Positions 9,265-36,955 of a stretch of 64,000 bases of DNA are shown here, in pieces. The stretch spans positions 8,348,380-8,412,379 of the forward strand of contig CM082591.2 of the NCBI GenBank assembly GCA_040954595.2, in the 5' to 3' direction. The stretch is from Balanoglossus misakiensis (Eukaryota; Animalia; Hemichordata). A program made the position numbers and the translations under genes. Below the pieces are notes generated by a model that searched no databases, was not told where the DNA came from, and worked only from the letters and a program-made list of their open reading frames with translations. Every line of letters starts with the position of its first letter. Within the stretch, counting starts at the first letter, position 1.

Positions 9265-11290
9265 AACTATATTGGTTAACTTGAAATAGCTTATGTACAT
9301 AATTATTGTGTTAAAGTTTAATACTTTATTAGGTGTTTGAGTCCTCCAAATTTGAAGGCAGTATCTGCTGTGCATGCCAACTTATGGAAAAGTAGATCAA
9401 AGGTCATTGCCAAAATTATCAAAAGATTTGGGTTATGTCCTGGCAGCAGTAGTACTCATGTGAACAAAATCATGACTGTTGTGCTTTTTAACAAGAGGCA
9501 TATCCACATAAAATAAGTTCTGGAAAAACTGGATCAAAGGACAAGCGAGAGTCGCAAACAAATTGTTTAATCAATTTCTGTAAAATCTTGATCAAAGAAC
9601 ATGTGAAAGTAGTCTAATAATTGTGATATATTCTGGTCATATGGTGACTCATATCCATAAAAAGAATTTGTGTGGTTTCAATGAATAGGCTAGAAATAGG
9701 AAATTTTAGTCTTTTATCGGAGATCAGAAAATCCAATTTGGCTCCAATAAGGTTTACCCAATCACAATTTACTTGAAAACTTGAGTAGAAAAAGATTTGT
9801 GAAATTTTTCATGAGATTTTTCAAAAATCCAATATGGCAACCAAAGTGACATGACCACTAATGATATTATTGTCAAACATTGAACCGCACAGTAAATTAG
9901 AACTTGATTTGCCTTGTAGTTGTTGAAAAGATGTCAATTTTCAAGGGTTATCAGAATATCCAATATGGCCACCATTAAGAAGAAATGGGACAGGCCCAAG
10001 CGGTTAGCATGGTTCCAACAGAAAGCAAAGGCTGTTTTGTTGTGGATTCCAAGCAATGATAAGTTAGCAAGAGGTCACGCAAAATTGTGACACAAATTGT
10101 TGATCTTAAACTGATAAGTATCCAACAAAAACCACACTTCTATAAAGCTCTATTTGTTTACTTGAAATAGCTTATGTACAAAATTATTGTGTTAATGTTT
10201 AATACTTCACTAGGTGTTCCAGTCCACCAAATGTGAAGGCTGTATCTGCTGTACATTCCAAGGCATGGGATAGTAGATCAAAGGTCATTGCCAAAATTAT
10301 CAAGAGATTTGGGTTATGTCCTGGCAGCAGTAGTACTCATGTGAACAAAATCATGACTGTTGTGCATTTTAACAATAGGCATATCCACATAAAATAAGTT
10401 CTGGAATTACTGGATCAAAGGACATGCGAGAGTCGCAAACAAATTGTTTAATCGAGTTCTGTAAAAACTTGATTAAGGATATGTGAAAGTAGTCTAATAA
10501 TTGTGATATATTCTGGTCACATGGTGACTCATATCCATAAAAAGAATGTGTGGTTTCAATGAGTAGGCTAGAAATAGGAAATTTTAGTCTCTTATCGGAG
10601 ATCAGAAAATCCAATTTGGCTCCAATAAGGTTTAACTAATCACAATTCACTTGAAAACTTGATTAGAAATAGATTTTTGAAAAAAAAATTATGATATTTT
10701 TCAAAAATCCAATTATGCATCCAAAGCCACATGACCACTACTGATATTATTGTCAAACATTGAACCGCACATTAAATTAGAACTTGATTGGCCCTGTAGT
10801 TTATGAAAAAAAATGTCAACTTTTAAAGGTTATCTGAAAATCCAATATGACCGCCATGAAGAAGACAATTAAAACATTAACTAAAAGCAGCATTGAAGGG
10901 ACCAAAATGGTTAGCATGGTTCCAACAGAAATCAAAGGCTGTATCTGTTATGGATGCTGAGAAATGGCAAGTAAGCCAGAGGTCACGCAAATTTGGGCCA
11001 ACAAATTTTGATATCAAACTAAGCTGTGTCCAACAGAAAACATACTTCTAAGCTCTATTGGTTAACTTGAAATAGCTTATGTACATAATTATTGTGTTAA
11101 AGTATAATGCCTCATTAGGTGTTTCAGTCCTCCAAATTTGAAGGCTGTATCTGCTGTGCATGGCAACTTATGGAAAAGTACATCAAAGGTCATTGCCAAA
11201 ATTATCAACATTTTTGGGTTATGTCCTGGAAGCAGTAGTATTCATGTGAACAAAATCATGACTGTTGGGCTCTTTAACAAGATGCATATC
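9265..11290. repeat. Tandem array of ~2.3 copies of an ~880-900 bp unit derived from the HINE family seen at 39846-41721
   Basis: 'ctatt(g/t)gtt(a/t)acttgaaatagcttatgtaca' recurs at ~9268, ~10150 and ~11055. Shares 'aaagtagatcaaaggtcattgccaaaatta', 'tgtcctggcagca' and 'ggtcatatg(g/a)tgactcatatcca' with the HINE. Confidence 0.85.
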
Positions 11291-14940: not shown

Positions 14941-16358
14941 CTGGTCAAAGAATTGGCTTTACTAAAACATCAAATTGGTTATCTCTCAAAGCTAAAAGGG
15001 TTATCACCAACAAACAGATTACAATGCCTGAGTTAAAATGTTTAAGACATTTTCTTTATTTGTGGTTTTGATTTTTATCGGTTTTCCCAATTTTTAAGTA
15101 TGACAACGGAGAGGTGGAAATCTCACCAGAAAAGCGAAAATACGCCAACCACATGTAAACAGTAAAAAGGTTACGAAAAAACAAACAAACAGAAAAGCGA
15201 AAATACACCAACCACGTTTAAACCGTAAAATAAAAAAACCTTGCAAATACCGAGTTGTCTCATATAAAAACCTCAAAAAACGTATGGAATTATGCATGGA
15301 AAGATACGTCGTCTTCCGACCTTCCGCTAAACAAAAACTATACGTATGGAACTATCGTTCCGTCCACCAGCAAAGAGACTTTCCGGAGAAAAACGTTCTA
15401 CCCGTACCTTATGTCGCCACAGTGACGTGCCATTTTGCCACAACCGTTCGACAGTATGGTCGACTATTTTGACACTAAACATCCTGCAGCGCTGATATCC
15501 TTTTCATCTCACAAACTGGCCCTACGTGCGCTTAGGCAAGAGGCCTAGCAATAAAATTCTCACAAAATATAACCCTATAAATATGACTAGACTTTCTCGA
15601 TTATGACTTCCTGGTCTCCTGATTCGGGAGCCAGCGCAGCCATACCCAGAATAGCCGAGAGGCTAGCTGCACGCCCGTAGCTCGGAATAGTTTCTGGAAT
15701 TAGACCTACTTCTGTACAACTACAAGGTGTTGTACGGATAGCTGCAAATCACCCAATACCAGACAAAACAATCGAGCGACGGTAACGTAGCTATATAGGC
15801 GATTGTACTAAAAGCAACGACTGGAATATGAGCTTACCGAAAAGACGTCTTGATCCCGCGGCAAGTAGAAGGAAAGTGGTCAATACACGGCGTCGCACAC
15901 CGGAAACGGGTCAATGATCACCTGTTGTTATGGTGAGTAGAACGTGTTACCCAATCACAGACCAAAGTTAGCATTACGACACACTAATGAATATGCATAC
16001 ATGCTACAGCTGCATATTTTATTTCTTTAGAACGCTCTGGAACATGCTCGCATTCGAAAGAATATCTCATTTGCTTCTTGAGTGTGAGTGCATCATCGTC
16101 TACACAATAAAAATCGGGGGGGGGGGGGGGCACAGTGGGTAATTTCTACCACAACCACGCATTTCAAACCAGGCAAGCGAACTGCAAACTTCCGGTGTCT
16201 GAGCAAGGGGTTTGATGTGCCTTGTGTTGTGCACACTATAATACTTATGTGTCAGTTTGGTCAGTCAGACCACGATACCCGAGATCGTAAAATGCTTGGG
16301 TTAGGTCGTCGAGGAGGCTGCAACTGCGGCCACAGGTCAAGTCGGTGTGTGTTGTAAA

Positions 16359-16621
16359 AGACGTATTTCATGTGGGACCAAAATTTGTGTCATAAACCCC
16401 TGCGTCGCTCACGGTGATTGGTAGCTCTAATGTCCCTATGTCCCCTTTCCGAGCAGTCATTGGCTGCCTATACGTCATTTCGTCTCATTAGTATTTACTG
16501 TTCCGAATTCAGCTCATTCATTGGCTGCTTTACGTTCTGGTCCCTTGCCTCACTTTCGAGTGTTCATTGCCTCGTTCTTTTATGTGCTCCTCACCGTCAC
16601 GTAATATGCGGGACTAGCCAA
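16359..16621 (+). repeat. Left terminal inverted repeat (263 bp)
   Basis: agacgtatttcatgtgggacc...gcgggactagccaa is the reverse complement of 20310-20572. Confidence 0.95.
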
Positions 16622-16899
16622 AGACTCCCAGACTCCAGGTGTTTCAATCTTGACTTTGTGAAGCCGCCAATTTTCCCCAACTAAAAAGAAACGTGGGCCT
16701 AGGAGCGACGTGATTGAATCATGGAAACTGTTTCGGGCAACAGAAACCCCAAGAGCATATTGACACTTTGCGATTTTTAAACCATCTTTTCATTTGTCCC
16801 CTTTTCAGTGTTTGTTTTGCCATTACCAAACACATTGTCAAGCTAACGCAAAAAATAAAATCGCGTGGCTGAAAAGTACTCGGTAATACCAATGTCTCT

Positions 16900-16902
16900 G
16901 CG

Positions 16903-16933
<31 letters not shown>
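16900..16933. repeat. (GC)n(CA)n microsatellite
   Basis: gcgcgcgcgcgcacacacacacacacacacacac. Confidence 0.95.
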
Positions 16934-17032
16934 GTCAACGCAGTTGCATATTTCGAATATAACAAGTACAAAAAACACATCATTATTTTATTTTAAAGAT
17001 CTTTAGCTTAGCTAGTAGATTTGCGCCAAGAC

Positions 17033-18226
17033 TCAACGCATGAAACGATACAATCTGATATGTCGCTGGGCTAAAAATGCGCACACTTCTACAATAATCG
17101 GCATTAGCCAACGTGGGTGCCGATAAACAGAATTAATTGCCCTATAAGTTTTCATATATTTTATGGCATGTTCAACATAAACTCGGGCAAAATTAAATTC
17201 TCTATTGAATACGAGCATCTTTGGGCGGTACGGACCACGCAACTCACGGGTTGGAAATCTCGTTAATAGCGGATACATATTTGGGTATCCTTGGTCAGCT
17301 CAAAAATATACATCTCGTGGAATCTGCAATTCACCTTTCAACCCTATCGATGGTAACAATCTGTACTGCATGGCATCATTAGCATGTCCCAGAAATCCCG
17401 ACTGAATGAAAATAATGTTACATTGATTGTCCACAATAACTTGGGTGCTCATTGCATGATGACGAGCGTATCCACTGTAAAAGTTATGCTGTTCTTCAAC
17501 TTCGGGACGATATATTTCATGTAGAGTACCATCGATTGTACCTACGGCATTAGGAAAATGTTCCCATTGTCCACGTAGTTGTCCAAAGCGTTCCAACGAT
17601 GGCCAGCGGACGCTACGTCGAAAGTAATGCCAAATTAATGAGAGAAGGTGACGTATTTCTCTATGAATAGTCGTGTTGCTTACCCCAAACCACGCTGCTA
17701 GTAAGTCTAGAGTAGGATAATGCCGTAGCCAAATAAAAGTGAGAAGAAAACGATTTCTTGAATCCATGGCAGGATGACGACGTAGATTCGGTTCCAGGTC
17801 ATGTATAATAACTTCCATCGATTGAATGGTTTCTCCAGTTAACATCCAGAAATGGCGAGGACGTCCTTGTAATGATGTCCAAACATCTACGCCATTACCT
17901 CGGCCAATACCATCATCGTTTGAAAAAAGCAGGTTGTATATGGTTGGTGGTCGTCGTAAAGGTGGACGCAGGATGTCACACAACAGACGTGTCAAGATCT
18001 GGATAAACGACAGATCATCAACCAACTGCGCTAGATGATACACTTCCCGTTCTTCAGAATACATTGGGAGATGGATGACCACGGAGACTACATACAATAT
18101 CACCATCATACTTCGGATACAAGATATGAGAAGCAATTTTGATTTCGCTGGAGCGGCATTTTGAATGATATTGAAGTTTGTGGTGTTCCGTTTGAAGATG
18201 CTTTCACGATGTGGGATTTGTCGCAT
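17033..18226 (-). pseudogene. Harbinger/ISL2EU (HARBI1-like, HTH_Tnp_4 + DDE_Tnp_4) transposase with one in-frame stop
   Basis: HTH 'FLLTFIWLRHYPTLDLLAAWFGVSNTTIHREI'. Catalytic motifs 'GTIDGT', 'FYSG', 'GHAND', 'YF*ADQGYP' and 'ARVYVEHAI'. ORFs 17300-18226 and 17033-17278 are in the same frame, separated by TGA at 17300-17302. The start may be the Met at 18109. Confidence 0.92.
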
Positions 18227-18644
18227 ACACTAACTTGTACAACCCTATTCTAAGCATGCGTTGCGAAATACAGTTTTAACATGTCTAAAGTTTCATTTGC
18301 ATAACCGGACCGTTGACCAGTCACAAATAAGCAGGAGTGGGATCACATCGCACTCCAGATGTTCAATTTTGAATGCCAATAGACACGGAGGCATCCACAA
18401 GTTGTTTCTTATTTCCCTTTTCATTTTTTGTATGGCTGAAAATTAACCATTTATTTTCTACTTTTAATGTCATCAACCCTTTTGAAATAGTTTTCAGCAA
18501 AGTTTAATGTGACCAGAAATCATGTATAATTCATATGGCCAATAAAACTTTGATTCGATTCTGTAAAATTAGTCGATCACACGAGGGATACCTGCAGATT
18601 AATAGGGAGTCAATTTGCCGTATCCGATTCATTTCGCGACAGCC

Positions 18645-19695
18645 ATGGCTTCTACGCGTACACCGCGCTGTGTTGTAACGGACGCCGAGATAAATTTGAT
18701 TAGGGCCGGGATGAGAATCCATAATACAAATTATGGAAATATTGTCCATTTCATGAGACAGTCTGGTCGTTTGGCCAACAGTGGGATGCCAGCCAATGCA
18801 GTACGGCTCTATCAAACCAGACTGATGAAACCACTGCGTCGGCGTGTTCGAGATGTTGTCGCTAAACGTATCTCAGAGTAAGTTTTATTATAGTTTCAAA
18901 CCGAGGGGAGTATTTCTCAAACAGGGAATGCACATGAAGTCTGTGAAATGTGAGTTTGACGGGTATTGTCTCCCAGAAAAGCACGAAATTTCGTATTGCA
19001 TCTATCGCAGCCAAAGTTTCTGTGTTTCTCTATGTAACTCCTCTGCTAATTTGCATATTTTGTCTTGACCGTTTCTTTGAATATAATTCACAAGTACACG
19101 TATGGCAAATATTGATATCTCCACTATCATTGAAATCTAGCTATGAAATACAGTACGATTTTTAATATTCATGTGCCGTCCTGGTAATCAGTCAGCAATT
19201 TTTGTTTATAGCGTCCGACAAATGCGTGAACGGGAGATGAGGTATGCGGCGCTGAGAACACCGGAGCATAGGGCACCGGTACAAGCACTGGCACCACGAC
19301 CATCGACACCACCACTGCCCCCGCCGCCAACACAAGCGCCTCCACCACCACCACCACAGCCGCTACCGCAAGCGCTTCCACCGCCACCACCACCGACACA
19401 AGCACCACCACCACCACCACAGCCACAACCACTCCTACCAGAAGATGAACCTCCTGCTGCCGATGAGCCCTTGGACCATCACAGGGAGCCCAATCCTGAT
19501 GATGACGACGGGAGGGGGATCCCTGCACCAGAGGACGCCCAAGAGAGACCACCACAGGGCAGAAGACGGCTGTACCATCTAGTGCGAGAGGCCCATGAAT
19601 TATATGTGGACTTCTTGAGAAACACTCTCCCTGACACTATGGCGAATGTAAATCGCACGCTGGATCGCCTCAACGACCAATTAGACAGATTGTGA
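18645..19695 (+). CDS. Transposon accessory protein (238 aa): divergent Myb/SANT-like N-terminus, proline-rich linker, C-terminal helix/coiled coil; exons 18645-18877 and 19212-19695
   Basis: Kozak gccATGG. Phase-2 donor GA|gtaagt and acceptor ttttgtttatag|C join in frame (717 nt). 'vvTdaEinLIraGmriHntnYgnIvhf...LRRRVRD' resembles Myb/telobox spacing. This is the expected position for a Harbinger second ORF. Confidence 0.8.
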
Positions 19696-20309
19696 GCACA
19701 TAACACGAATACAATATTTTTTTATCTATCACCTAAGATTTTTCATTTATCTGGGGTTTTTTAATATTCCCCACCACCAATGCAACAGCCCCTTACATGA
19801 AGACTTAGCCTTTTAGTGATAGTATGTTGTATCGATAAAGAGCATATTGCAAACATATTGAAGGAAATGCCAATACAATTGCCAGGAAACAAATAGCGAG
19901 AGCACAAACATTTCCCAGAGTTCCGCTGTTGAAGATATCTTTTTTTTTATCTTTATACTGCCCAAATATGTTTTTATTTTCTAGGAATAGAAAAACAAAC
20001 ACATATTTGACATTCAGGGGGTACCTAGACTCTATGGCAGTCGCTGTGCCTGTCGATAAGGAATGAAATTTTCATACTGCATACGACGCGCCGCCGCGCC
20101 AGGCAAAGCCACTAGCGACTGTGTGATTAGCGTCGCGTCCATATGACGTTCTATCGGACGCGTATTTCAGTATTGGGGCAAGACTAGGGAATGGCCCGTA
20201 GCTTTGACGCCGGAGCTTCATGACACGGTGACAAACAATAGGGTGCAGCGCAGGTGCAAAACAAATTTAGTCTTTACATATGTTTCGACCATGCTCTGTC
20301 TGGTAATGA

Positions 20310-20572
20310 TTGGCTAGTCCCGCATATTACGTGACGGTGAGGAGCACATAAAAGAACGAGGCAATGAACACTCGAAAGTGAGGCAAGGGACCAGAACGTA
20401 AAGCAGCCAATGAATGAGCTGAATTCGGAACAGTAAATACTAATGAGACGAAATGACGTCTAGGCAGCCAATGACTGAACGGAAAGGGGACATAGGGACA
20501 TTAGAGCTACCAATCACCGTGAGCGACGCAGGGGTTTAGGACACAAATTTTGGTCCCACATGAAATACGTCT
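20310..20572 (-). repeat. Right terminal inverted repeat (263 bp)
   Basis: Reverse complement of 16359-16621. Confidence 0.95.
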
Positions 20573-20734
20573 AGTCAAACATGGTAAATGCGTCCCGAAC
20601 AGCAACACGCTCGCTCTACCCACAGTCACTGTGCTCTACCTTTATGTCGATCGTTTCCATGTCAGTTTCATGTTGGCTCGTTACAATGCCCCTATGCTTA
20701 TCGTAATTCCGGGATCGTAATTATTATTTTATTA

Positions 20735-31490: not shown

Positions 31491-31631
31491 TATGTTAATT
31501 TGTGCCATGAATAGCAGACATTTACCAATGACAGTACAATGTATGATTTCAGTGTCACATATCCGTGTATTAGACACTTACATTGTACAAACACATACAT
31601 CTTACTTTCTCTCCAAATTGTAGATACTCAC

Positions 31632-31741
31632 CAACACGTGTATGTTGAATCCTGGTCTGCAACCACACTGGTAACGGGCTGGTGTGTTGTAACATACTTG
31701 TTGGTATGGCGACCAACCAGCTTGATCGCACTCATTGTCAT
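31632..31741 (-). pseudogene. Degenerate calcium-binding EGF exon
   Basis: DDNECDQAGWSPYQQVCYNTPARYQCGCRPGFN. One Cys is replaced by Tyr and the last Cys is out of frame; ag/gtgag splice sites. Confidence 0.8.
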
Positions 31742-32183
31742 CTGTGGGGAAAACACAAATATCATAAATTGTGTATGAATGAATACATCTGAATTACAGT
31801 TGTCCTTGAGTGCACATTTGAAAATATACGACAAGAGAAAAAAATTGAAAGAAACTTAATAAATATCATCTGGCATATAACTTGGTCATATCATATGTTT
31901 ATCTGTACCAGTACTGTATACTGATGAACAAACAATGTAGTAACCACATTACATTTTACAAGCTAGTGTTCTGCAAGCCAAAAATATCACACACGAGACA
32001 ACAAACTCAATTTTTTTTAAATGTGTAACTTTGGAAAGTGCCTGATAACTTGTATTTATTATTTTTTTTACATGGTGACTCGCTGTAATCTTTGTCACTT
32101 ACAACTTGTTTAAGCGCTCTTTTGAGGCAGGAAATTCCAAGCCATTGTTGGCCTATCCCCTCCCCACTCAAATAAAAACTTAC

Positions 32184-32303
32184 CTAAACAATTGACATGA
32201 TCTGCACTCATAGAGAAACCATCATCACCACAATTACAGCTAAATCCACCCTCTGCATTGAGACAACCTCCAACACAGACAGAATCTGAACACTCATTCA
32301 CAT
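32184..32303 (-). CDS. Calcium-binding EGF exon (120 bp, phase 1-1)
   Basis: DVNECSDSVCVGGCLNAEGGFSCNCGDDGFSMSADHVNCL with ttttcag and gtaagt boundaries. Confidence 0.85.
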
Positions 32304-33143
32304 CTGAAAATAGAGAAAAAAAACATCCATTGTAATTATTCAAGTCAATACCAATCCTCCCTTCCATTAACAATTTCCCTAAAGGGAACAAATTCACATG
32401 GCTTTGAAATTAAGTATTAACAGTGATATTTTAATATTTCTAACGGACACGACTTTTATAAACGTTGAGTCTTTTTGTGGATTTGTAGAAATTATCTACA
32501 AACTGAGCTGTCAGGTCATGGCTGTTTGTGCTTTGGCATGCACACATATCCCAGAATGCCCAACAGGGTTGGCAGTGAAATTGATAAACTCTTGATTTCA
32601 AACTCGTAGATCTCAATAGATTCTCACACTCCTGGCATGCTGAGAGTGTGGGATCAGAGTGTGAGAACAAATCAATCCCACATTCTCACTGAATTGAAAG
32701 CTGTATATGATGCGAGCGCTGATTGGATGACAAAGCGTTATTTAATAACGTGCGCTAAATGTTATCCAATGACGTGATACAGAAACTACAATGTGCCAGA
32801 TGACAGTTCAAGAGTCATTTATTCTATGTTTTAAGACGAATTGGGCTAATTTATGGCCATGTGAGAAATATAATCTCACACACCAAGGTCCTGGGATCAT
32901 ATTTCGCACACTCGTCAGGGATATATTTTGTCCCACACTCGCCTGCAGCTTGTTTGGGACAGAAAATCCACAATTCATGTGAGAGCTATGAAATTTGTAC
33001 AGTCCTATGAACCTAAAACATGAAAAAAAAATGTTTGCTTGTTGGTAGTTTCCCGGAACAATTAAAAACCGCGTCTCCTCATCAATTTTGACATTTTGAA
33101 AGATGCTAAACAAAACTCATATTTTGGCCTTATCGGTAGCAGA

Positions 33144-33246
33144 GTGACGTCATTTTCTGGGTAGCCAGAACTCACTTCCGGCACAGCATTTGGGTGTTTC
33201 ACATTTCTCCGTTGTTGCTGGCTTATCTGTCGACAAGCAAGGTAAC
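33144..33246 (+). promoter_or_regulatory. Housekeeping-type promoter / first non-coding exon
   Basis: CRE palindrome TGACGTCA, ETS ACTTCCGG, then donor-like CAAG|gtaacc at 33241. Confidence 0.4.
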
Positions 33247-34141
33247 CTAAATAAGGGATTTATAAGTGGCCTTGACAGTGACCTTCACATAAGACTTCTT
33301 GACCCTATGACCTTTCATGTGATGAGCAGTTGCCAAAATAACTTTCTCTTTGTGACCAATCCAGACCGAACACTTTTCTATTCTACTACACAGAACAAAC
33401 TAAACGCAAAGTAACTCATGAAGGAAAACGCTGACAAAATCTATGCCTACCAGTAATTTTCAAATCAGGTAACTGCATCTGAATTTATACAAATTAATTG
33501 AATATTGCCTTTGTGGTTGTCTGATGTCAATTTTTAATTGAAGAGTTGTTGTGTTAGAGTTAACTTGCGTGAATTGCTTGCCTTTCATTCTGACAGTCAA
33601 TTATAATTTGAGGATGCAGCTCCCACTTCTAGATTGAAAATATGAAATATTTAAAATATATGTATTTATATTTTAATGTAAAACACTATATCACAAGTCA
33701 TCCTTTCACCAGAGGTGGGCCAAACCGTAAAGGAAACTGTGAACAATCATTCAATGCTCAGATATTTGGATTGACAATTCTACTCTTTGGCACAATATTC
33801 AATTTCAAACATTTTTGAATACAGTAATAAATGCATTTAATATTGCATGTATTAAATTTTGCTATTTTACAATTGGGGCCAGTGGGTGAGCATTTCAAAA
33901 AAAGAAAAGTCACTGTTTGTTCCTTTGATTTGTGTATCATTTGATCCCTGCAACCGTACACTTTCATTGACGAGAAGTGTCAAAACATCCACAGGTCTAT
34001 TCATTGAATGTGAGGTGCAAAGCTAGAAATGGAGATGTTACAAGTAGTGCATGAGCGTCGTATGTGGAAATCTAATGGTTGGAGGCGAGAAATAAAAATC
34101 GCATTGTTTGTTGTTTGCACATGCGCACAAAGTCATTAAAT

Positions 34142-35183
34142 ATGGTGTCCTTCATGTCATTTCGGGAACGATCGCGATCGTCGACGAAAAAAGTTGTTGC
34201 ATCTGTCTCACGAGAGCATCATCTCGTTTTGACAACTGAAAATCGTATGCCAAACACTCAGGGGCATGTTTCGGAGCCAGCGCTGAAGGTAGGAGTGGCT
34301 ATTTGTGCATGACGTGCAAAGCAAGCATCAGAAAGTTTTGCGAGGATCGATCGTTGGACTTCAGCCACTTACTTGACAAAAAAGGCCAGAAAGGTGGAAG
34401 TAACGGACACAGGCAGCATGGGGGACAAAGAATAAAACTGGCAAGGTGGGAGAGTTCTTCATCCACGTCGACGAGTAGCAAGGAAATAGGCAGCGAAGGT
34501 TCCGGCTGTGACTACCGGAGTTGGTTATCTGCGGCAGGTGCATGTGGATTGCTGCCACCCGATGTCATTGTCAGTATTCTCCATCACGTAAATGTCACTG
34601 ATATTGTGAATTTCACATCATCATGTTAATTTTTGAATACATTTCAAGCTGATCCTATAATTTGGCGTCAGAAATTTATTCATGATTTTCCAGAGAAGTA
34701 TGCCACACTGATATCTCATAAGGCAGGCTTTTTTGATAACACCACATCATGGTTTGAAATTTACAAATTATCGAAATTTTCTGATCTCAACCACCAAAAT
34801 GACACACAACAATATTTAAGTCTGATCAAAGCACTGTTTGTTCAAATGAATAATGCTTCACGGAAATTAATGACCTGAAGGAAAAGTTGGCACCAACACA
34901 AAAATCTCTCAGTGATATTTTGACCATGTCACCATCCAAACCACTCACAGTAACACAAGAAAAAATCTTCAAAACTATGACAGTAGTTAACGAAAGAAGG
35001 AGTTTGGATGGAACCATAAAAGCTGTTAGTTCCAGAGGAAGTCCAAAAGTGTATATTGCAATACCCCAGACAGAAACATCATCGATAGAAGCTACAGAAA
35101 GAACAAAAAGAGCCAGGTGTCAGCTGATGGAGAACATTGAAAAAATGCAGTGTGTCGGGTGCATTTTTGATATGTTGTTCTAG
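34142..35183 (+). pseudogene. Intronless decayed ORF: FAM60A/SINHCAF-like zinc finger + F-box + coiled coil + unassigned C-terminal region
   Basis: CCICLTRASSSRFDN*KSYAKHSGACFGASAEGRSGYLCMTCKASIRKF (34195-34338) matches the FAM60A pattern CCICRAKSSSSRFTDSKRYEKDFQSCFGLHETRSGDICNAC. F-box LLPPDVIVSILHHVNVTDIVNFTSSC*FLNTFQADPIIWRQKF lies in the same frame. Lesions: frameshift at ~34192, stops at 34237 and 34627, frameshift at ~34850-34865. Confidence 0.8.
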
Positions 35184-35303
35184 ACACCTCTCCGAAATAT
35201 ATTCTGAAAAAAGAAATTCTGTTGCAATTTGTGGTGGGTTAGGTGCCCAAATCTCGTAGATTTTCTAGACTAATAGGTGATCGTAATATTGATTTGTACT
35301 CAC

Positions 35304-35481
35304 CACAGGACGATTTTCTCCAGTCCAGCACAATCCCCTTCCTCCTGGCTTCATAGGCATAGGCAAACAATACATCACATAGACACTTTTCATGCACAGG
35401 ATATGCACACATATCAGACAAACACAATTCATAGAACGGAGCTGGGTTTACTACACCATGGGCTGGCCGAAATAATGGTCC
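35304..35481 (-). CDS. C8 domain exon
   Basis: GPLFRPAHGVVNPAPFYELCLSDMCAYPVHEKCLCDVLFAYAYEARRKGIVLDWRKSSC with ttttacacag and gtgagt boundaries. Confidence 0.85.
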
Positions 35482-35533
35482 CTGTGTAAAACCAAACAAA
35501 CATAACAACGGATCATTTACAATGAGAAACTGT

Positions 35534-35841
35534 TTAAAGGTGTACGGTCACATATGGAAAATTAGCAATAGTTACCTTGGCAAATTGAGAATTAGCCAAT
35601 CACACATTTTCAGTTGGTGGCACACACGAAAAAAAGAGCGCCACCATATGTTCTCAAATATGCCATTTCGCGATATTGAGAGAGGCCACTGTTTAGCGAG
35701 TATTAATTTTCGCGTTCTCTTATTTCATTCACGGCATTGTTATCTTCAAAAAAAAATATGCAACTTTTTATTTTCATGCTATTTTAGCTCTCGTGTATTT
35801 TGCGAAAACTTATTGCTCGCAAATATAAAGTGTTTTACAGT
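35534..35841. mobile_element. Fused partial Kolobok-type MITE and Tc1-type MITE
   Basis: 35534-35670 is an inverted homologue of 36983-37157; 35670-35841 matches the CTGTAAAACA family. Confidence 0.65.
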
Positions 35842-36109
35842 CGTATTACTAATACATATACACTGTTTTTACTCTAAAACGCTCAAAGTAGAAAAATAGG
35901 CATGAGGAAAAGAGAGACAGCAAGACAGATGTTTGAAGTCTCTTAATTTTCCAGAATTGTCCTGTTTCCTGCAGTGACTTTCCAAGGAATTTCAGAGTTT
36001 GGATTGAAAATTGATAATACTATTACTAATGTTTCAGGAGTTAACACTGTACGAACCCTGATGCGTATATTGAAGACAGACTCTCACATTGTACAACCAA
36101 ATGACTTAC

Positions 36110-36255
36110 ATGAAATCATCACCAGGATTATCATTGAAGTTGCCACACAGACCACAGAGTCTCCCTTTGTATGTACCATCTGCGGTGACCTCTCCAAAAT
36201 GGGAGCCATCCCACGACATGCATACCAATACTTGAATGCACAACCACCATCAACC
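36110..36255 (-). pseudogene. VWD domain exon 2 (frameshifted)
   Basis: GLMVVVHSSIGMHV/WDGSHFGEVTADGTYKGRLCGLCGNFNDNPGDDF; the CGLCGNFN hallmark is present. Confidence 0.88.
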
Positions 36256-36658
36256 CTGTCATGTTACGATGTAAAACAAGTATGTTGATATAAATCAGGT
36301 TATATGTCCATTAAAGCCCTTATAGCTGCCAAATTTCACATATTTTTTCGACACTAAAATACTTCAAATATGTTCCCTGAGCAGAGCTGGTGTAAGAATT
36401 AACACCTCACCGCAACCCACTGTCTATGGGGCCGAGCCTCAGTGCCTATACATAAGAATTGTGTGTGTGGACCCAAGCGACTGAAAGGATTAATGCTCTG
36501 TGTTTACCATAGGCAAATAGTGTCTCAATTTTTTCCCTGTCTGAACCTGGTATATGTCAGCCCTTTGAATGTGGTTACATGTTTTAAGTTGGCTAAACAA
36601 TGCAGACATATCTAGGTATAAAAAGGGTTAAGTTCGACCTAAGATTTGATTGACTTAT

Positions 36659-36955
36659 CTATTTTTTGTATACTAAGATCTGGTTCCTGCAAGTAAGGTA
36701 ATTCTACCAGGCCTCCATTGACACTTACTGTCAAATCTGGCATTAGGTTGATCACCCAATCAACTAGTCTGATCTGAATGACTTGTGTCCAGGCAACAGC
36801 AAAGGTACTCTTGCCATCATTCTGAACTATAATCTTAAAGTTATTCTGATAACAATCTTGTGATAAGACATAGGTACATGTCCCTTGGAAGGAGAAGAAT
36901 TTCCCATCATATGTCCGGTAATGAGGATCTCCAAATACAATACACGGGGCAGATT
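36659..36955 (-). CDS. VWD domain exon 1 (297 bp, donor mutated to AT)
   Basis: SAPCIVFGDPHYRTYDGKFFSFQGTCTYVLSQDC...VELPYLQEPDLSIQKI, ending G|ataagt. Confidence 0.9.

Follow-up and report, generated by a model that had tools for sequence, protein, structure and literature searches.

Positions 34142-35183 of a 64,000-nucleotide stretch of Balanoglossus misakiensis DNA (hereafter the window, meaning the whole stretch analysed) read, over broken frames, as a zinc finger resembling that of FAM60A/SINHCAF followed by an F-box, and raise the question of what kind of gene this combination was taken from. The sequence-only reading had proposed a stand-alone adaptor gene of two domains. Instead, we put the probability at roughly 90% that the stretch is the decayed 5' third of a gene for a DUF1280/RAG1-like cut-and-paste transposase (Chapaev/Transib/RAG1 group), a remnant that lost the core and stayed antisense in a host gene, and that the finger of intact relatives likely contacts DNA or chromatin and their F-box would bring in an SCF ubiquitin ligase. 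We read the stretch as a transposase fossil because the same domain order is seen in intact proteins of 1,118 residues, in which a DUF1280 core follows.

Frames and domains of the window copy

Translation of 34142-35183 placed an ATG at 34142 in one frame and a cysteine-rich domain in a second frame from 34186, with CCIC at 34195. In-frame stops were found at 34237-34239 (TGA) and 34627-34629 (TAA), and a third stop at 34876-34878 is accompanied by a second frame change into 34854-35183. The frames, the two stops, the Ser-rich linker and the F-box text described earlier were recovered, except that the sequence has RASSRFDN, with two serines and not three; the earlier list of breaks was right on the two stops and lacked the third stop and the second frame change. 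The ATG start and early frameshift that it assumed find no homology support, as the relatives begin 4-10 residues ahead of the cysteines. The features of the copy are:

34142-34194, +: short frame started by ATG, not in frame with the finger, the true start being uncertain (translation)
34189-34389, +: FAM60A-like single zinc finger (CCIC ... CF ... CxxC), transposase N-terminal domain (PF15396 E 7.4e-4; family profile E 1.6e-18)
34237-34239, +: stop 1, TGA (Ser codon in X1 and X2 contigs)
34390-34551, +: low-complexity Gly/Ser linker (translation)
34552-34695, +: F-box and next helix (PF12937 24.8 bits; profile E 4.5e-7)
34627-34629, +: stop 2, TAA (Ser codon in X1 and X2 contigs)
34696-34878, +: helical/coiled-coil region, ending in stop 3 and the frame change (translation, tblastn)
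34854-35147, +: end of the coiled coil and conserved pre-core segment (tblastn; profile E 3.7e-13; hhalign 97% probability, E 2e-11)

Read with X at the stops (P0001), the window copy matched the Pfam F-box-like profile (PF12937) at E 1.9e-5 with 24.8 bits, above the cut-off of 24.3, and the FAM60A profile (PF15396) at E 7.4e-4 with 20 bits, below the cut-off of 27 and over profile positions 13-80 of 206 only. Both of the profile matches expected from the earlier reading therefore exist, the FAM60A match being weak. Against profiles of the relatives the three window pieces scored 68.9, 31.9 and 52.9 bits, compared with maxima of 7.5, 6.5 and 4.9 bits in a control of 400 shuffles (376, 256 and 279 of them scored for the three pieces); the first two profiles were built from hits to the window query, and the third alone is independent. 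The third segment, which never served as a query, matched the segment in front of the transposase core in relatives by tblastn, profile search and hhalign, and no counterpart to it was found in the host FAM60A-like rows.

The copy retains the first ~330 codons, the front third of the transposase, and homology stops near 35147. Searching the 64-kb window with 12 core-bearing queries and a profile did not detect the transposase core, and neither terminal repeats nor a target duplication were found around the copy, where inverted-repeat pairs occurred at chance level (best 9 of 13). With core and ends missing, the window copy cannot move itself, and it makes no working enzyme. No DNA-level match was found between the window and 24 metagenome loci, and a word-indexed search with P0001 returned no match at 127-405 residues. 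Just 5' of the finger, 34160-34189 is a CG-rich stretch of 30 bp that is 80% palindromic and may be a promoter element instead of part of the coding region.

Intact relatives and a complete element

Among 1.84 billion representatives, 31 matched at E<=1e-3, and 30 of these were scanned with Pfam (P0032 was outside the scan). FAM60A and F-box-like matches occurred together in eight of the 30 scanned hits, in six of them above both cut-offs, so that the two domains are indeed found together elsewhere, in intact proteins, as the sequence-only reading had anticipated. Two of the 30 run on into DUF1280, and eight are host FAM60A-like proteins scoring 79-134 bits, one of which is named FAM60A by its source. 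P0016 and P0020 were repetitive and were dropped as noise. Profile searches added four further DUF1280 proteins and the full-length P0048 (1,118 aa, cluster of 6), in which FAM60A (51-125), F-box-like (166-207) and DUF1280 (396-563) each score above cut-off. The intact relatives, of ~1,100 residues, carry in order a FAM60A-like finger, an F-box, a coiled coil, a DUF1280 (Chapaev-type) RAG1-like core and a Cys-rich tail. DUF1280 (PF06918) reached 57-70 bits against a cut-off of 25 in P0007, P0028, P0038-41, P0048 and the metagenome locus L001. The F-box is degenerate in the P0002/P0007/P0014/P0038-41 lineage; because one lineage let it decay, we regard the F-box as accessory. The lack of introns, held earlier to fit a mobile origin, does not point to retro-origin, since several relatives (P0004, P0028 and P0048) are likewise uninterrupted over the equivalent stretch; L001 has introns. 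Short relatives form near-identical sets with different truncations (P0011 cluster), as decaying copies show.

In P0007, P0038, P0039 and P0040 similarity breaks off at one common point once the first half of the core is passed, which would fit a common intron, and the L001 introns lie at places other than this break. A further layout in the group was seen at L022:3198-4556, a DUF1280 protein with a weak PHD-finger match past the core start (E 9e-4).

Metagenome scanning yielded 24 loci out of 110 pattern matches. Finger, F-box and pre-core segment stand in order in four of the 24 (L001, L002, L003 and L014), which are one family at least 99% identical; L011 has the finger and the pre-core segment, and most other loci are short contigs. 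The finger of the L001 family gave no Pfam FAM60A hit and was matched by the family profile at E 1e-6. The 9.5-kb element at L001:1480-10963 is complete, ending in perfect inverted repeats of 13 bp that begin with CAC, and L014 has such ends likewise. Copies whose interiors are at least 99% identical occupy three distinct insertion sites, and their left flanks (three) and right flanks (two) are mutually unrelated, with 16-33% identity over 100 bases, indicating that the element spread recently. At the L001/L003 site a 4-bp duplication was pieced from two contigs, and a paralog of the flank that lacks the element has these bases once; for L014, the second complete copy, a target duplication was not found. 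The element sits in a short palindromic repeat (L001:1389-1479, 10964-11000), the element-free copy of which lies at L003:733-912. The mobile-element origin proposed earlier is thus borne out by intact relatives that are transposases, one family of them in a complete element. Intact multi-copy versions with shared ends, proposed earlier as a check, exist in the L001 family, but no such ends surround the window copy. A viral source, raised as another option, finds no support: P0048 gave 11 pattern matches in viral contigs and none was a relative.

The core of these proteins resembles that of RAG1. The model of P0048 was poor overall (mean pLDDT 49.8), while the finger and the initial half of the core were predicted with confidence. 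All seven Foldseek matches of this model at E<=1e-3 were RAG1 chains, with TM-scores of only 0.07-0.08, and its residues 446-577 aligned to RAG1 507-694 with Z 8.2 and rmsd 4.2 over 120 residues, outranked by four coiled-coil rows. In the ESM Atlas, residues 430-1118 of P0048 matched a DUF1280 cluster at 0.96 (the family being on 12% of members) and RAG1 clusters at 0.91-0.94; P0028 gave no usable match there, and PDB sequence searches with P0001, P0048, alignment A4 and P0029 returned nothing significant. DUF1280 corresponds to Chapaev transposases, grouped with RAG1 in the available text of PMC3985635, and the CMCT group is described in passages of PMC12730594 as having a D-D-E triad whose second D and E enclose C(2)C and H(3-4)H. 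Acidic, C(2)C and H(3-4)H motifs occur in the CMCT order in P0048, L001 and L004, with D in place of the second His of H(3-4)H in P0048; the roles of the catalytic residues were assigned from motif order, not structure. By analogy, D-D-E catalysis and the zinc motifs would work as in RAG1, and cut-and-paste movement in the manner of RAG1 is the most likely route for the intact elements.

The relatives share with Chapaev (DUF1280/PF06918; CMC/CMCT group) the DUF1280 core above cut-off, an N-terminal zinc finger, CAC-starting inverted ends, and C(2)C and H(3-4)H between acidic residues; a short duplication was seen at one of the two complete sites. Chapaev proper makes a 4-bp target duplication. 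For the CMCT group as a whole, target duplications are 2-5 bp, and inverted ends of CA..TG, CAC in Chapaev3, are given in the accessible parts of PMC12730594 and PMC3014272. Described Chapaevs begin with a two-zinc Chapa domain, with a RING next in two subgroups (portions of PMC4411706; bioRxiv 10.64898/2026.01.24.700457), whereas the relatives begin with a FAM60A-like finger without the N-terminal His, followed by the F-box. Of 22 relatives, one has a His in the 12 residues ahead of the first cysteine pair. Because the N-terminal His of Chapa is absent, we file these elements in the CMCT group as Chapaev-type by core and not in a described Chapaev family. Among RAG1, RAG1L and Transib, RAG1 is the best solved match of the relatives' core, and its NZD, RING, core and tail parallel their zinc finger, ubiquitin-system module, core and Cys-rich tail; however, the relatives carry an F-box instead of the RING, and core identity to RAG1 is 10-16%. 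Transib differs in having a 5-bp duplication (as stated in part of PMC4411706), compared with the 4 bp seen at one site in the relatives. An F-box is also joined to transposon domains in Zisupton/KDZ fusions and in Caenorhabditis F-box A2 genes, but these belong to other superfamilies (KDZ CxC7, Tc1 HTH), and FAM60A occurs 0 times in the available text of the paper describing them (PMC12062965). A Zisupton identity for the F-box was rejected, the core being DUF1280 and no CxC family hit being obtained.

No description of a FAM60A-like finger and an F-box on a RAG1-superfamily transposase was found in the search, which covered freely accessible papers and not Repbase Reports. The architecture, a transposase of the RAG1 superfamily having an F-box in the RING slot and a finger it shares with SINHCAF, may be new, and it adds a third N-terminal layout among the transposases from which RAG1 descends. 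The F-box in the RING slot suggests that these enzymes repeatedly gain a handle on the ubiquitin system, and the finger of a conserved chromatin protein, SINHCAF, is tied to a transposon, whichever direction the domain moved. The complete, recently spread element in L001 and the uninterrupted ORF of P0048 make both questions testable.

The finger, the F-box and Sin3

PF15396 scores above cut-off in intact relatives, up to 52 bits in transposase-type rows, whose matches extend no further than position 103 of the 206 in the profile, apart from one weak match reaching 135; P0029 is matched over positions 8-203. The C-terminal Sin3/HDAC-binding region of FAM60A (human 149-221) was not matched by the transposase-type rows. 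A crude C-terminal motif scan had P0029 as its sole match and missed six of the seven host-like rows, so the scan is not sharp. In an unrooted finger tree of 30 rows and 78 columns, built without P0017 and P0019 (which miss the pattern), P0030 and P0032, the seven host rows form one branch with support of 94/94, short of the tool's star, and the window finger falls outside it, nearest the transposase-type rows (41% identity to P0002) and ~30% identical to host rows. The conserved finger columns are Cys, Phe, Ile and Gly only. When the predicted finger model (pLDDT 82) was compared with 48,161 chains, ZADs (zf-AD) were the best structural match, taking five of the top six places at a low Z of 3.9-4.7 (rmsd 2.3-2.8, 52-56 residues); this is weak, as GATA fingers reached Z 3.0-3.4, within ~1.5 of ZAD, and all ZAD Z values lay under 5.1. 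Foldseek gave no match to the finger model at E<=1e-3.

The sequence-only reading held that the FAM60A-like part grips Sin3-HDAC and hands it to SCF as an anti-silencing adaptor, an idea that could equally apply to the N-terminus of the intact transposase, in which finger and F-box are adjacent. What the relatives share with FAM60A/SINHCAF (PF15396) is the sequence pattern of its N-terminal GATA-like zinc finger; unlike FAM60A, they have this finger fused to an F-box and a transposase, and without the C-terminal half that mainly binds Sin3/HDAC. In human FAM60A, cysteine mutants of the finger lost promoter binding and kept SIN3-HDAC co-precipitation (available text of PMC3463326). Binding to Sin3/HDAC maps mainly to residues 149-221, which on immunoblot sufficed for complex binding where residues 1-148 failed, although the HDAC1/2-RBBP4/7 submodule bound N-terminal as well as C-terminal parts (passages of PMC13254352), which would leave room for contact with HDAC by way of the finger. 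Together with a match to the first half of the FAM60A profile only and a finger ~30% identical to host rows and outside their branch, these data leave the adaptor idea not supported, and we consider it improbable.

For the transposase reading, the analogy with the FAM60A finger suggests that the finger engages DNA or chromatin; alternatively, by the likeness of its model to ZAD, it may dimerise. F-boxes bind SKP1, and by analogy that of the relatives would do so too, most likely setting transposase turnover or else ubiquitylating nearby chromatin proteins, in what appears to be the slot of the RING E3 in RAG1 and some Chapaevs. A single-zinc, ZAD-related ancestor has been proposed for Chapa and the RAG1 N-terminal domain, and neither FAM60A nor an F-box is mentioned in the available part of that work (bioRxiv 10.64898/2026.01.24.700457). 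It is conceivable, if doubtful, that the elements are an undescribed RAG1-superfamily branch with the ancestral single-zinc ZAD-like finger, an F-box for the RING, and the source of the SINHCAF finger, in which case SINHCAF would be a domesticated piece of transposase.

State of the window copy and its host gene

Three runs of the same organism (X1, X2 and X3), from one sample record and one study and none of them listed as RNA, cover the stretch. In X1 and X2, on separate contigs, each of the two in-frame stops is replaced by a Ser codon, so that of the earlier verdict of a dead copy the conclusion holds, the core being missing, but not the two stops cited for it. A gap-free X1 contig piece over 34012-34263 has the same early frame offset, so the window is not alone in carrying it. 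The second frame change is matched exactly in an X3 contig and lies outside the X1 pieces listed, and X3 shows 0 differences from the window over 34666-35091. Among the frame differences listed (40 of 229 rows, unphased, one study), nine comprise one silent, six missense and two stops, a silent share near the neutral expectation of 21%. Read depth over 34140-35165 is at the region's lowest level, and depth here is not a measure of copy number.

The Ser codons in X1 and X2 would fit a window that holds the null allele of a working host gene, namely a domesticated, core-less derivative of finger, F-box and coiled coil, as would a depth that looks low-copy, the shortness of several database relatives and the domestication of F-box/TE-domain genes in fish and nematodes (reported in part of PMC12062965). 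Since the early frame offset is in the X1 contig too, silent changes are as few as near-neutral decay predicts (one of nine) and the short relatives come in near-identical, variously truncated sets, we judge this very unlikely. Chance juxtaposition of an F-box fragment and part of a FAM60A retrocopy, which the weak FAM60A score, absent introns and broken frames might suggest, is refuted by three segments in the order and spacing of intact transposases, the third of which is absent from host FAM60A-like rows.

The transposase fossil lies, as described earlier, antisense inside a host gene. That gene is on the minus strand and encodes VWD, C8 and EGF domains along with many VWC repeats, and we take it to resemble Kielin/Crossveinless-2; the fossil sits where the C8 exon gives way to the EGF exons. 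Yet part of the stretch also appears as a spliced segment in a transcript-like contig of the host gene. The host features are:

34666-35091, −: stretch antisense to the copy, as spliced last exon of the host gene, with AATAAA at 34680-34675 (X3 contig, GT-AG intron to 35304)
35304-35481, −: host gene exon, C8 domain (PF08742 E 7e-16; splice joints)
36110-36955, −: host gene VWD exons, 36729-36955 and 36110-36255 (PF00094 E 1e-18; splice joints)

In the X3 contig the VWD exons, the C8 exon and 35091-34666 are joined, with GT-AG introns removed between them, and the sequence stops 14 bases past the AATAAA; the last-exon splice is seen in this one contig, at depth 9, in a run whose kind was guessed as DNA. 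From the splice and the AATAAA it follows that the fossil supplies an antisense last exon to the host gene, and this exon with its poly(A) signal, observed in one contig, is the one visible effect of the window copy, which as a fossil is itself of little importance. The spliced form in X3 has no open frame.

The host gene looks damaged in the window haplotype (31600-36955, −): its exon at ~32440-32690 is a frame-broken Cys-rich remnant, and X1 and X2 pieces over 36099-36264 have two extra bases. At 41720-64000 the window holds three tandem units of 7,311 bp, ~99% identical, each with the same block of host VWC-like exons, which is either a recent expansion of the VWC array or an effect of assembly. 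Elsewhere in the window, a Harbinger-like element with 284-nt inverted arms, 96% complementary, spans 16350-20581 and has frames for DDE_Tnp_4/HTH_Tnp_4 (17300-18229, −) and a Pro-rich product (19147-19695, +), and 55-2299 is an (ATG)n array of 2.2 kb, which in turn seems to be duplicated at a spacing of ~1.09 kb.
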